DNA from: an uncultured Oscillospiraceae bacterium
GTDB lineage: Bacteria > Bacillota > Clostridia > Oscillospirales > Oscillospiraceae
NCBI GenBank assembly: GCA_964496235.1
Contig: CAZBYU010000002.1
Coordinates: 1 to 27,311, forward strand
Reading direction: 5' to 3'
Length of the DNA stretch: 27,311 nt
This document shows, in pieces, positions 6,557 through 10,765 of this stretch. The position numbers and the translations under genes were made by a program. The notes under the pieces were generated by a model. That model was not told where the DNA came from and did no database searches. It saw only the letters and a list, made by a program, of their open reading frames with translations. Numbering within the stretch: the stretch's first letter is position 1; the number at the start of each line of letters is the position of its first letter.

Positions 6557-7621
6557 TTACAGACTCTTCTTACGCGCGTCGAGGGAGAGGAACACTATCT
6601 TTTCGCAAAGCTCGGCATAGCTCATACCCTCTACGGCGGCGGCACGCGGAATAAGGCTGTTCGGGGTCATGCCGGGGAGGGTGTTGACCTCCAGACACCA
6701 AGCACGTCCCTCCTCGTCCAAGATAAAGTCCGTGCGGGAATAAACCGAGAGACCGAGTGCGCGGTGGAATTTCAACGCCGCTTCGCCCATGAGCGCGTGT
6801 TCCTCCGGGGTGATAGGCGCAGGGCAGAGTTCTCTCGCGCCCTCGTCACCGGACTGATACTTGGCAACATAGTCGAACCTGCCCTCGGGTGGAACGATCT
6901 CGATGGCGGAGAGATAGCGATCGTCGAGGACGGGGACGGTCATCTCACGACCTGTTATCTTGCGCTCGACAACGGCGCGGTCGGAGTATTTCAGCACCTC
7001 GGCAAGACCGGCTCTCAGCTCATCGCGCGTCTCGGCAATGACGACACCGATGGACGAGCCGCCGTTGACCGCCTTAATCACGCAGGGAAGGAAAAGCTCC
7101 TCGGTGAGAGAGGGGATATCGTCAGTAGTATAGGTGATCTCGCGCCACTCGGGAGTCAGAACACCAGCAGACTCCATAATGCGCTTTGCAACCGCCTTGT
7201 CCATTGCCATGGCACTGCCCAAGGGCGCAGAGCCGGTATACGGCACACCCAAGAGGTCAAGAGCGGACTGGATTTTTCCGTCCTCCCCGTCCGCGCCGTG
7301 CAGACCGAGGAAAACGCAGTCGGCAAGACGGCAAAGCTCCAATACGTTTTTGCCGAGGCGGCTGGGGCTTTTATCGCGGCGGGCGGCTTTCACGGCGGCA
7401 ATATCAGGCGCGGTGCGACCGACGGCGACATCGCCGCAGAAGCCGTCCGGCACATCGAAAACAGACTCCAAAGAGCCGTCATAATCCTCCAAGCCCATGA
7501 ACATGTCGACAAACACGGCCTTGTGACCCAATGAGCGCAAAGCGCGGCAGACCGATGTCCCCGTGACTAGAGCGACATGACGCTCAGAGCTTACGCCGCC
7601 ACCCAAAACAACTATTTTCAT
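6557..7621 (-). CDS. ddl: D-alanine--D-alanine ligase
   Basis: 354 aa. VLGGGVSSER, LHGADGEDG, GSAMAMDK, GGSSIG, omega loop FDYVAKY, EVNTLPGMT...SLIP. AAAGGA RBS. Confidence 0.95.
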   Translation of the reverse strand: MKIVVLGGGVSSERHVALVTGTSVCRALRSLGHKAVFVDMFMGLEDYDGSLESVFDVPDGFCGDVAVGRTAPDIAAVKAARRDKSPSRLGKNVLELCRLADCVFLGLHGADGEDGKIQSALDLLGVPYTGSAPLGSAMAMDKAVAKRIMESAGVLTPEWREITYTTDDIPSLTEELFLPCVIKAVNGGSSIGVVIAETRDELRAGLAEVLKYSDRAVVERKITGREMTVPVLDDRYLSAIEIVPPEGRFDYVAKYQSGDEGARELCPAPITPEEHALMGEAALKFHRALGLSVYSRTDFILDEEGRAWCLEVNTLPGMTPNSLIPRAAAVEGMSYAELCEKIVFLSLDARKKSL

Positions 7622-7713: not shown

Positions 7714-9150
7714 TCAGCACTGCTTCATGACGCGAATGAAGAACTCAACCGCGCGTTCGATGACTTCAAGACGAATATGCTCGTCATTGCCGTGAATGGT
7801 GCTACGCTCCTCACCGGTGAGGTCCATGGCAGAGAAGCGGTAAACGCGGTCGCTTATCTCGCCGTAATGGCGGCTGTCGGAACACTGAACCATGAGGTAC
7901 GGGGAGACGACACAGCCCTTCCACGTGCCTGCGACGGCGTTTGCAACGCGCTCCCAGCCGATGCAATCGGTGCGGGAGATGGGGCTGGGGTTCATGCACT
8001 GACCGACGGAGAGCTTGATTTTGGGGTCATTGACGACAGAGGCAATATACTCCTTCGCGCTCTCAACGGTATCCTCGGGATTGAGGCGGAGGTTGGAGAC
8101 GATAGAGGCAGACGGCGGAATGACGTTGGGGGCCTTGCTACCGCTCATCTGGGTAAATGCAACGGTGGTACGCATAAGAGCATTAAGCTCACCGCCGGAC
8201 TTTTTGCAGATGGCATCAAGCACACCGCTAAAGCACCAGAGGTTGGAGAAGATGACGCGGTAAAGGAAGGTGGAACGGCGACCGAGCGTGTCGAACATCT
8301 CCGCCACGGGCTTGGTAAGATGCGCCTTGAACGGATGCTTTTCGACCTTGGTGCAAGCCTCAGACAGGCGGACAATGGGCGAATTGGGCTTGGGTGCGGA
8401 GGCGTGACCACCGGCGGAGGAAACGGAATACTCGAGGTTGAGCATACCCTTTTCCGCAATGCCGATGAGACCGCACGGCTCATGCACACCGGGGAAGATA
8501 TTGTCCACAACGCCGCCGCCCTCGTCGACGACCATTTCAAGCTCTATTCCCTGCTCCTTAAAGTAGTTGACAATATGACGCGCACCCTTGCCGTTTATCT
8601 CCTCGCCGCCGGAGAACGCGAAGTAGATATCGTTTTCGGGGGTGAAGCCCTGCTTTATGAGGTTCTCTGCGCCGGAGAGTATGCCGTTGAACGTGACCTT
8701 GGTGTCAAGAGTTCCGCGACCCCACATTATGCCGTCGCTGACCTCAGCCTCAAAGGCAGGGTGAGTCCAGTTTTCTTCCTCGACAGGCACAACATCATAG
8801 TGCGCCATGAGGACGGAGGGCTTGCCGTCACCCTTGCTACCCTTCCAGTGGAAAAGGAGACCTCTGTCTTCAAAGCGAGTGAGAGGGCAGGTCTTTATCA
8901 CGTTCGGGAAAAGCTCGGGAAGCTTGCCGATGAGCTTTTCAAACTCGGCATCGTCTTCAAGTGAGTGGTCATAATACGAGACGGTGCGGCATTTTATAAG
9001 CTCGGCGAGAGAGTTGACTGCAGCATCGCGGTCAAACTCAACAGGCTCAAACTCCTTTTTGCCGGTGTCCTTGGGCGTGAACATCGCCGCGCGAACGAGA
9101 ATAACGGCAAGAAACGCAACGATTGCCGCAAGAATTATCCAGCCTATCAT
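7714..9150 (-). CDS. M20-family metallopeptidase/amidohydrolase (carboxypeptidase-S/PM20D1-like) with an N-terminal membrane anchor
   Basis: 478 aa. AHYDVVP, GRGTLDTK, GGEE, VDEGG and IHGNDE metal-ligand motifs. Hydrophobic N-terminus MIGWIILAAIVAFLAVILVRAAMF. Confidence 0.9.
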   Translation of the reverse strand: MIGWIILAAIVAFLAVILVRAAMFTPKDTGKKEFEPVEFDRDAAVNSLAELIKCRTVSYYDHSLEDDAEFEKLIGKLPELFPNVIKTCPLTRFEDRGLLFHWKGSKGDGKPSVLMAHYDVVPVEEENWTHPAFEAEVSDGIMWGRGTLDTKVTFNGILSGAENLIKQGFTPENDIYFAFSGGEEINGKGARHIVNYFKEQGIELEMVVDEGGGVVDNIFPGVHEPCGLIGIAEKGMLNLEYSVSSAGGHASAPKPNSPIVRLSEACTKVEKHPFKAHLTKPVAEMFDTLGRRSTFLYRVIFSNLWCFSGVLDAICKKSGGELNALMRTTVAFTQMSGSKAPNVIPPSASIVSNLRLNPEDTVESAKEYIASVVNDPKIKLSVGQCMNPSPISRTDCIGWERVANAVAGTWKGCVVSPYLMVQCSDSRHYGEISDRVYRFSAMDLTGEERSTIHGNDEHIRLEVIERAVEFFIRVMKQC

Positions 9151-9191
9151 TATTTGTTTTCCTCCTTAGATTTTGCCTGATTTCGACTCAA

Positions 9192-9860
9192 TCAGTCGAG
9201 AACATGCTTTTTATAAAGAATTCTGGAGACACCGATGGTGAAGAGAACGCCGATGGGAACCATGATGCCGACAGTAGACGCGTTGAGTGCGGGTACGAAG
9301 ATGAAAAGCACCAGCATGAGGATAACAGGAGCAACGGCGATTTTCCAGTTCTTCGAGACAAACACGACGCCGAGTCCGCCGAAGAGTGCGGGAAGGATCT
9401 GTGCAAAGGCGGGGGCAAGCACAGGCGCGTCGAGAATCGGGGCAAGCGGCGTGATGAGGATAACACCGAGGATTATTATAAGCGTGGTGACGATGCTGGA
9501 AACCGCGATCGCGACAGTGGAGACGACCTCGCCCTCCTCGGAACGGATGCTGACATCCGCCTGGTCAAGCGCGTTGAGCGCGACGGGAAGCTTGAGGTTG
9601 GAGATATTGCCGGTGACAAAGCTGAGATATGAGCCGCCCGCGCCGAGCATGGGGACATAGGTGAAGGTCTCGACAATGCCGACTGCCCAGTACATGGGGG
9701 CGGTGGCGATGAAGCCCATCAAAAAGCCGTGCCAATCGGGGGTGGCGTTAAAGATTATGCCGACAAGCGCGGGGAACATCATAAGCACGACAACCATGCT
9801 CAGATTCCAAATGCGCCCGGCCTTATGTACAGAATGGATATAGGACGATTCGTTTTTCAT
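9192..9860 (-). CDS. Multi-pass membrane protein, partner of the DUF5058-like protein
   Basis: 222 aa, several hydrophobic helices, conserved-looking YLSFVTGNISNLKLP and EEGEVVSTVA segments. AGGAGGAGG RBS. Confidence 0.8.
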   Translation of the reverse strand: MKNESSYIHSVHKAGRIWNLSMVVVLMMFPALVGIIFNATPDWHGFLMGFIATAPMYWAVGIVETFTYVPMLGAGGSYLSFVTGNISNLKLPVALNALDQADVSIRSEEGEVVSTVAIAVSSIVTTLIIILGVILITPLAPILDAPVLAPAFAQILPALFGGLGVVFVSKNWKIAVAPVILMLVLFIFVPALNASTVGIMVPIGVLFTIGVSRILYKKHVLD

Positions 9861-9880
9861 TTCCGTTACCTCCTCCTATT

Positions 9881-10618
9881 TTAAGAAAGCCATGCGGTGA
9901 TGGGGATCGCGCTCGCCATGCCGATGATAAGACTTGCGGGGAGTGCATAGTCGCTGACCCAACGCCAGTTGGTCTTTTTCACAAGCACGCCCGCCACGCA
10001 CATAACAAGTGCGGACACGAACATGACCAGCGGCGGGATAAGACCGGAAAGGTTGCCGGAGAAGACAGAGCCGAAATCACAGAAAACATAGCCGAGAAAG
10101 GCAGAGATCATACCGGTGAACATAGAGGCAGAGAAAATCTCCGTCCACTTATGGTCACGGTTTTCCATGCTGATCATGCCCTTTTGCAGCTTTTCGGCAA
10201 CGACGGGAACAAGCCAGATGCCGATCATAATGCTGAGTGTCATGACCCATGCGATAGTGACATACTGCTGTGCGGTGAGGGAGGAAACCTGACCGAAGAC
10301 AAGCCCCATCGCGCTCTCCGCGTTCGACGCGGCAATGGTTTCATAAGAAAGCGAGCCGACGACGCTGAGTCTCAACCAAGGCAGAGGCACACCGAGGTCT
10401 TTTGCGAGAGTGATAACGCTGATGACGATGGCCACGGCAGGTGCAATGGTGAATATTGCCGCCGTGCGGGCAATGCGCTTTAGCTTTGCGCGTTCCATGC
10501 CGATGGCAAGACCGCGCCGCCACGCCTTGACGAGGAAAAACACCGACTGTGCAAGCACAGCGGCGATTATCACGCCGACGATGACGAAAAGAATGGGGCT
10601 GTTGACATTGAAAGTCAT
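9881..10618 (-). CDS. DUF5058-like multi-pass membrane protein
   Basis: 245 aa. LGVPLPWLRLSVVGSLSYE motif (my recollection of DUF5058) and about six hydrophobic segments. 20-nt gap to the partner gene. Confidence 0.8.
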   Translation of the reverse strand: MTFNVNSPILFVIVGVIIAAVLAQSVFFLVKAWRRGLAIGMERAKLKRIARTAAIFTIAPAVAIVISVITLAKDLGVPLPWLRLSVVGSLSYETIAASNAESAMGLVFGQVSSLTAQQYVTIAWVMTLSIMIGIWLVPVVAEKLQKGMISMENRDHKWTEIFSASMFTGMISAFLGYVFCDFGSVFSGNLSGLIPPLVMFVSALVMCVAGVLVKKTNWRWVSDYALPASLIIGMASAIPITAWLS

Positions 10619-10765
10619 TCTTCTTTTCTCCTTTGCTTACTTTTTTATATGCCTATATGAGTCTGCGAAAATATAAACATATTTTATCACAACACCGCGA
10701 TAAAGAAAAGGGGCAAGAGGGCAAAAATATGTCAATCTGCCTTGATTTTTCACGCACGCTTCTTT

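Follow-up and report, generated by a model that had tools for sequence, protein, structure and literature searches.

The window analyzed here is a stretch of 27,311 nucleotides from contig CAZBYU010000002.1 of an uncultured Oscillospiraceae bacterium (GenBank assembly GCA_964496235.1), whose source genome is an incomplete metagenome-assembled genome (MAG) of 1.8 Mb in 440 contigs. Our subject is a module of three consecutive minus-strand genes within the window, which code for a DUF5058 membrane protein, a second membrane protein that we refer to as the partner, and an M20 metallohydrolase with an N-terminal membrane anchor (Table 1). The nearest named relatives of the locus are gut and rumen MAGs of Oscillospiraceae, Faecousia, and "Catabacter". 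The open reading frames confirm the arrangement described in an earlier, sequence-only reading of this DNA, with three genes on one strand, a 20-nt gap between the first two, and ribosome-binding sites (AAGGAG, AGGAGGAGG, and AAGGAGGA) 5′ of the three start codons that are all strong. That reading also held that the module has neither an ATPase nor a substrate-binding protein, and this stands; the nearby ABC operon (pstSCAB) is divergently transcribed and unrelated.

The DUF5058 protein matches PF16481 at 230.9 bits (cutoff, 28.2) over profile positions 1 to 222 of 222 and is thus full length. Pfam and NCBIfam searches place the partner in no family. The hydrolase contains Peptidase_M20 (PF01546, E value of 6.4e-26) and M20_dimer (PF07687, E value of 5.9e-12) domains, and its best NCBIfam match is to the PRK08262 "M20 family peptidase" set; with NF006113 it scores 319.9 bits against a cutoff of 503 and, on this measure, is related to the PRK08262 equivalogs without belonging to the equivalog. 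Residues H117, D149, and E183/E184 align with H67, D100, and E134/E135 of DapE (3ic1), and D209 and H453 are placed by motif only; all are candidate metal and catalytic residues, and the hydrolase appears to be intact. The literature that we searched has no mention of DUF5058 or PF16481, and searches on bacterial PM20D1 homologs and on split antiparallel carriers found no literature on the DUF5058/partner family.

Table 1. Features of the three-gene module and its flanks (positions in the window)
Feature	Coordinates	Strand	Description
DUF5058 subunit (P0001)	9881-10618	minus	245 aa; Pfam PF16481, E 1.9e-68
Partner subunit (P0002)	9192-9860	minus	222 aa; unnamed membrane protein
M20 metallohydrolase (P0003)	7714-9150	minus	478 aa; N-terminal transmembrane (TM) anchor, residues 2-19
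DUF5058/partner gap	9861-9880		20 nt
Partner/M20 spacer	9151-9191	minus	41 nt; carries ribosome-binding site AAGGAGGA
Small inverted repeat	9181-9201		Overlaps partner stop codon
5′ leader	10619-10700	minus	Ribosome-binding site AAGGAG
Extended −10-like element	10689-10681		TGATAAAAT; candidate promoter
−10 hexamer	7696-7691		TATAAT, perfect; just upstream of the stem-loop
Stem-loop	7653-7676	minus	10 bp, G+C rich, no U-tract; between M20 stop codon and ddl
ddl	6557-7621	minus	D-alanine–D-alanine ligase; NCBIfam PRK01372, 296.9 bits, above cutoff

Conservation of the pair and its association with hydrolases

Of 394 good-quality genomes drawn from across the phylum, 30 (∼7 to 8%) have a DUF5058 gene, as do 11 of 24 genus relatives. 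We retrieved 40 DUF5058 loci, 38 of which have enough contig to show the downstream gene, and in all 38, which come from many families of the phylum, a P0002 homolog lies directly downstream on the same strand at a median gap of 14 nt. A further 80 species loci were found through the partner's motif, and DUF5058 is directly upstream of the partner in 74 of 78 of these species. The partner family comprises 937 representative clusters at 50% identity (E value of ≤1e-3), and at least 586 species genomes carry a close partner relative. The sequence-only reading would fail if the two membrane proteins did not co-occur; they clearly do, and DUF5058 and its partner are an obligate pair.

Several individual loci depart from the common pattern. 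In a complete genome, the DUF5058 gene has one in-frame TGA (L004; G056:C1:837013-837657), which may mark a pseudogene or be a recoded codon or a sequencing error, and elsewhere DUF5058 is in two pieces beside an intact partner and M20 gene, which may be a decaying copy (L030; G359:C98:14903-15707). Two genomes each have two diverged copies of the module (L002 and L009 in G432, and L037 and L038 in G008), suggesting paralogous systems with different substrates. A contig labeled as a Spirochaetaceae MAG (L079; JAQQAK010000009.1) codes for a partner homolog that is 66% identical to that in the window, and this could reflect either horizontal transfer or a binning error.

The pair is also closely associated with hydrolases. 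An anchored PRK08262-type M20 enzyme adjoins it in about 20 of our 40 loci and, in the closer set, in 72 of 74 species, with the same three-gene order as in the window, and this order recurs more often than by chance. TIGR01891/CpsA-like amidohydrolases take the adjoining position in eight loci, and the other neighbors include an ArgE/DapE-type M20 enzyme, a glutamate-carboxypeptidase-like M20 enzyme, a hydantoinase/carbamoylase-type amidase, an M42 aminopeptidase, and an Amidohydro_1 enzyme resembling Xaa-Pro dipeptidase. By our own tally, a metallo-amidohydrolase or peptidase of one of at least six families adjoins the pair in ∼22 of the 25 phylum-level loci with room for one, a count that is not a statistic, as the relatives are not independent; it nonetheless supports a strong link of the pair to peptidases and amidohydrolases. 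PucR-family regulators accompany five loci. These enzyme families all cleave the amide on the amino group of an amino acid with a free carboxylate, and the recruitment of at least six of them points to a shared substrate class, being hard to explain otherwise. A PM20D1-like activity of the M20 enzyme on N-acyl amino acids, as raised by analogy, is in line with these neighbors and is a reasonable guess. In one locus, the gene after the pair (L022:7509-8885) codes for a PGA_cap (CapA-like) protein in place of a peptidase, and this protein faintly matches MslH, a lasso-peptide C-terminal epimerase.

The anchor of the M20 hydrolase is a strongly hydrophobic 18-mer, and its flanking charges were compared among 95 PRK08262-type homologs that adjoin the pair. 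The anchor helix begins within ∼5 residues of the N terminus, and lysine plus arginine (K+R) residues average 0.21 before the helix versus 3.39 in the 15 residues that follow it, with more after than before in 95 of 95 homologs. By the positive-inside rule, this pattern predicts an N-out/C-in protein, and the catalytic domain is probably cytoplasmic and tethered at the inner face of the membrane. The hydrolases of other types that adjoin the pair have no N-terminal hydrophobic segment, signal peptide, or anchor and are therefore predicted to be cytoplasmic. The sequence-only reading had taken the N-terminal anchor as a sign that the enzyme faces outward, and the charge pattern does not bear this out. 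With the M20 domain predicted to be in the cytoplasm and the other hydrolases apparently unexported, the system more likely imports the substrate of the hydrolase than its product.

Topology and structure models

We aligned 32 sequences of DUF5058 and 54 of the partner, and both proteins have a conserved Gly/Pro-rich and partly polar segment after the second helix, which we refer to as the hairpin. In DUF5058 it covers approximately residues 76 to 103 with the motif LGxPxPWLRLSVxG..YE, in which R83 and E93 are invariant. The partner hairpin covers approximately residues 69 to 100 with the motif PxLGxGGxYLxFxTGNxxNLKxP; G15, Y78, G84, and P92 are invariant throughout the partner alignment, E64, N85, and E109 are near-invariant, and K90 is invariant among close relatives.

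The two proteins have charge biases in opposite registers. Mean K+R counts in DUF5058 are 5.6, 5.4, and 2.6 in loops 1, 3, and 5 (sum, 13.6), against 0.5 at the N terminus, 1.8 in the hairpin region, 0.5 in loop 4, and 0.2 at the C terminus (3.1 outside). In the partner it is the N terminus (3.7), loop 4 (2.1), and the C terminus (3.4) that are charged, with ∼0.6 in loops 1, 3, and 5, and the overall bias is 11.5 versus 1.7. From these biases and the models, DUF5058 is predicted to be N-out/C-out, with two TM helices, a re-entrant hairpin entering from the outside, and four further TM helices, and the partner to be N-in/C-in, with two TM helices, a hairpin from the inside, and four TM helices. 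The subunits thus probably share a layout and sit in the membrane in opposite orientations.

Natural fusions of these proteins are rare, and we found three DUF5058-partner fusions and one partner-M20 fusion, all of them metagenomic singletons (P0125 to P0128) and one frameshifted. The partner-M20 fusion (P0126) is a 704-aa protein represented by a single sequence on one contig. The DUF5058-partner fusions are probably artifacts, because the termini that they join (C-out and N-in) are predicted to be on opposite sides of the membrane. A search of the ESM Atlas found only unnamed clusters, together with one 54-member, 463-aa DUF5058 cluster (score, 0.84), and both this cluster and the P0125 to P0128 fusions would, if real, conflict with the predicted topology.

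We used the fused chain of P0128 only as a scaffold, so that both subunits could be modeled in one chain. We supplemented its alignment with closely related DUF5058 sequences and a third fused one and verified that DUF5058 sequences fall on the first half and partner sequences on the second. The resulting model has a mean predicted local distance difference test (pLDDT) score of 88.4 and a predicted template modeling (pTM) score of 0.85, with only the linker disordered. The subunits are packed confidently in this model, which offers indirect support for a defined complex. The partner modeled alone by AlphaFold2 has a pLDDT score of 92.8, and a structure search with that model gave no meaningful neighbor; profile searches against PDB sequences gave no match to DUF5058, and those with the partner turned up chance MerF matches only. 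The two-subunit model has mutually consistent best structural neighbors in UraA/SLC23, SLC26/SulP, SLC4/Band 3, and Bor1. The first repeat of these inverted-repeat carriers, which have 7+7 TM segments, aligns with DUF5058, and the second, inverted repeat aligns with the partner.

The likeness to the 7+7 TM carriers lies in short central helices that are broken in midmembrane. There are predicted differences, however. These carriers have seven crossings per repeat, whereas the K+R biases here fit six crossings plus a re-entrant hairpin. At TM3 and TM10 they also have a strand leading into a half-helix, whereas DSSP assigns no strands at the hairpins of our models. Neither subunit has a Pfam match to Xan_ur_permease, Sulfate_transp, or HCO3_cotransp at an E value of ≤0.01. 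We read the resemblance as one of mode of action, in which the pair may operate as an inverted-repeat carrier does, with broken helices at its center, and not as membership in one of these families.

Leader, spacers, and flanking genes

The 5′ leader of the DUF5058 gene has an extended −10-like element as a candidate promoter, and a scan for consensus promoters found none in this leader. An Rfam search of the window and the 5′ region gave no match and no riboswitch, and the fold of the leader is ordinary (z of −0.5). The small inverted repeat at the end of the partner gene has no T-run on the transcribed strand, and a terminator scan of that strand found no terminator-like site between the three genes. 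In other species the spacer between the partner and M20 genes has a median length of 13 nt; three loci have a 4-nt overlap of the two genes instead.

The 92-nt spacer between the M20 gene and ddl folds strongly (−31.4 kcal/mol; z of −4.3) and contains the stem-loop and the −10 hexamer listed in Table 1. The stem-loop is a likely but unproven 3′ boundary of the module; it was not flagged by the terminator scan, and it could be a U-less terminator, an RNA-stabilizing element, or part of the ddl leader. A ddl gene also lies 3′ of the M20 gene in the genus relatives L035 and L041, whereas of 80 other loci just one has it. The adjacency is confined to the genus of the window, and ddl is outside the conserved module. 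Upstream, in divergent orientation, pstSCAB (a phosphate ABC operon) and a PhoB/PhoR-like pair make up a neighborhood that is unrelated to the module.

A candidate carrier and its alternatives

The sequence-only reading proposed a heterodimeric secondary transporter that imports the substrates or products of the hydrolase. The obligate pairing, the hydrolase link, and the confident packing of the fused chain make such a transporter the best reading, although with the substrate more likely to be imported than the product. In its full form, to which we give somewhat better than an even chance, the pair is an antiparallel heterodimeric secondary importer of N-blocked amino acids or short peptides that is coupled to hydrolysis by a cytoplasmic, membrane-tethered M20 enzyme. 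DUF5058 and the partner would assemble as an obligate heterodimeric carrier with oppositely oriented subunits, in which the polar residues of the hairpins (R83 and E93 of DUF5058 and G84, N85, and K90 of the partner), together with E64 of the partner, may form a central site for the substrate and a coupling ion. The carrier would import an N-blocked amino acid, an N-carbamoyl amino acid, or a short peptide with a free carboxylate, and the M20 hydrolase, held at the inner membrane face by its N-terminal helix, would cleave it to yield amino acids in the cytoplasm. What the analysis shows directly is the gene order, the conservation, the family assignments, the charge bias, and the confidence of the models; the formation of a complex, the direction of transport, the class of substrate, and the coupling to an ion are inferred.

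Known systems offer analogies to different aspects of this proposal. The closest functional analog is AbgT with AbgA/AbgB of Escherichia coli, which together take up p-aminobenzoyl-glutamate and hydrolyze it with an M20-type enzyme in the cytoplasm. The operon logic is the same, with a hairpin-bearing secondary carrier for an N-acylated amino acid beside M20-family amidohydrolases; AbgT, however, is one polypeptide of a named family, whereas the predicted carrier here is divided between two proteins of opposite orientation and works beside a membrane-tethered hydrolase. Neither subunit matches any transporter family in Pfam, including ABG_transport, and AbgT is not among the top 50 structural matches. 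The 7+7 TM inverted-repeat carriers are the closest structural analogs, and the paired SMR proteins are the closest in organization. SMR pairs (EbrAB and YdgEF) and DUF606 pairs are antiparallel heterodimers encoded by adjacent genes with opposite charge biases, and we find both adjacency and opposite K+R bias for DUF5058 and its partner. The SMR and DUF606 subunits, however, are small (4 to 5 TM helices) and clearly homologous, whereas each subunit here has six predicted TM helices and a hairpin, and the two cannot be shown to be homologous. The AzlCD/BrnFE/YgaZH exporters likewise are membrane carriers encoded by two genes, handle amino-acid-like solutes, and lack both an ATPase and a binding protein. 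They differ from the DUF5058 and partner subunits in that the latter are of similar size and have no Pfam match to AzlC (PF03591) or AzlD (PF05437), and the genomic link of the pair to catabolic hydrolases points to import.

Several observations weigh against an antiparallel importer coupled to cytoplasmic hydrolysis. Three loci (L008, L029, and L031) have no adjacent hydrolase, and the positive-inside rule on which the orientations depend is a statistical rule and not a measurement. The fused chain behind the two-subunit model is a singleton that is topologically inconsistent with the predicted C-out and N-in termini, and its linker is a modeling device. Comparison of the subunits with each other by hhalign gave a probability of homology of only 23.7%, and of 3 to 8.7% in further runs, and an ungapped cross-correlation of their hydropathy profiles (r of 0.39) was no better than with reversed profiles or unrelated membrane proteins. 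What carries the idea of look-alike halves is therefore the order of the helices, which is the same in both subunits in the models, and the opposite charge bias.

The location of the hydrolase is the point on which one alternative turns. The M20 protein could be an ectoenzyme that a signal-anchor keeps at the outer surface, where it would cleave peptides or N-acyl amino acids, with the pair importing the amino acid released. The N-terminal hydrophobic helix would suit such an arrangement, as would the eukaryotic relatives, of which yeast carboxypeptidase S is lumenal and PM20D1 is secreted, and the partner-M20 fusion would put the N terminus of the anchor on the inside face, where the partner ends, and hence the enzyme outside. 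That fusion may be a sequencing artifact, however, and the positive residues following the helix in every homolog are the opposite of what a type II signal-anchor has; with all of the other hydrolase families beside the pair also devoid of export signals, we consider an external enzyme unlikely. It is also improbable that the pair is an exporter of the hydrolysis product or of amino acids in the manner of AzlCD/BrnFE, or that it acts in the membrane as a scaffold or regulator, positioning the hydrolase or controlling it. No result fixes the direction of transport, the partner modeled by itself shows no recognizable transporter fold, and in the clade of the window the module has no dedicated regulator and sits among housekeeping genes (those for MurC, Ddl, MscL, and cardiolipin synthase), all of which would be compatible with a role other than import. 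Against this, the catabolic amidohydrolases and PucR-type regulators of other lineages fit uptake, the buried, invariant charged hairpin residues and the similarity of the whole model to carriers only fit a transporter, and the Pfam searches link neither subunit to AzlC or AzlD.

A variant of the importer proposal that is specific to the genus of the window assigns the module to salvage of cell-wall or D-amino-acid peptides through a link to the downstream D-Ala–D-Ala ligase. The M20 gene and ddl are 92 nt apart without a U-tract terminator and in an order shared with two genus relatives, and in a genome of the same order murC is directly upstream of the module (L002:4557-5957). We nevertheless consider this variant very unlikely, as ddl is all but absent from the other loci, the Mur ligase in question is MurC and not the recycling ligase Mpl, the M20 gene and ddl are separated by a strong stem-loop and a TATAAT hexamer, and ddl and murC are both housekeeping genes. 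Cell-wall genes do flank the module in two lineages (murC in L002 and ddl in the genus of the window), probably by chance among housekeeping genes.

The importer proposal with cytoplasmic cleavage can be extended to a broader and more tentative one, which is possible but which we would not call probable. The pair may be an undescribed transporter family, possibly with a new fold, in the form of an elevator-like carrier made of two separately encoded and oppositely oriented subunits, a surviving "prefusion" stage of inverted-repeat transporters. Gut and rumen anaerobes might then take up and cleave N-acyl amino acids, or related conjugates from the host and the diet, with this carrier and the tethered M20 enzyme acting as one unit.

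The pair is widespread, but DUF5058 is no more than a domain of unknown function and the partner belongs to no family at all. The corrected orientation of the hydrolase shifts the focus to uptake of the substrate and away from extracellular cleavage. If the pair is a carrier, it would be a natural two-gene example for structural biology of an antiparallel carrier with re-entrant hairpins, and it would represent a new route in gut Clostridia for the uptake of peptides or of N-acyl or N-carbamoyl amino acids, gut metabolites of a class for which turnover by microbes is poorly mapped.

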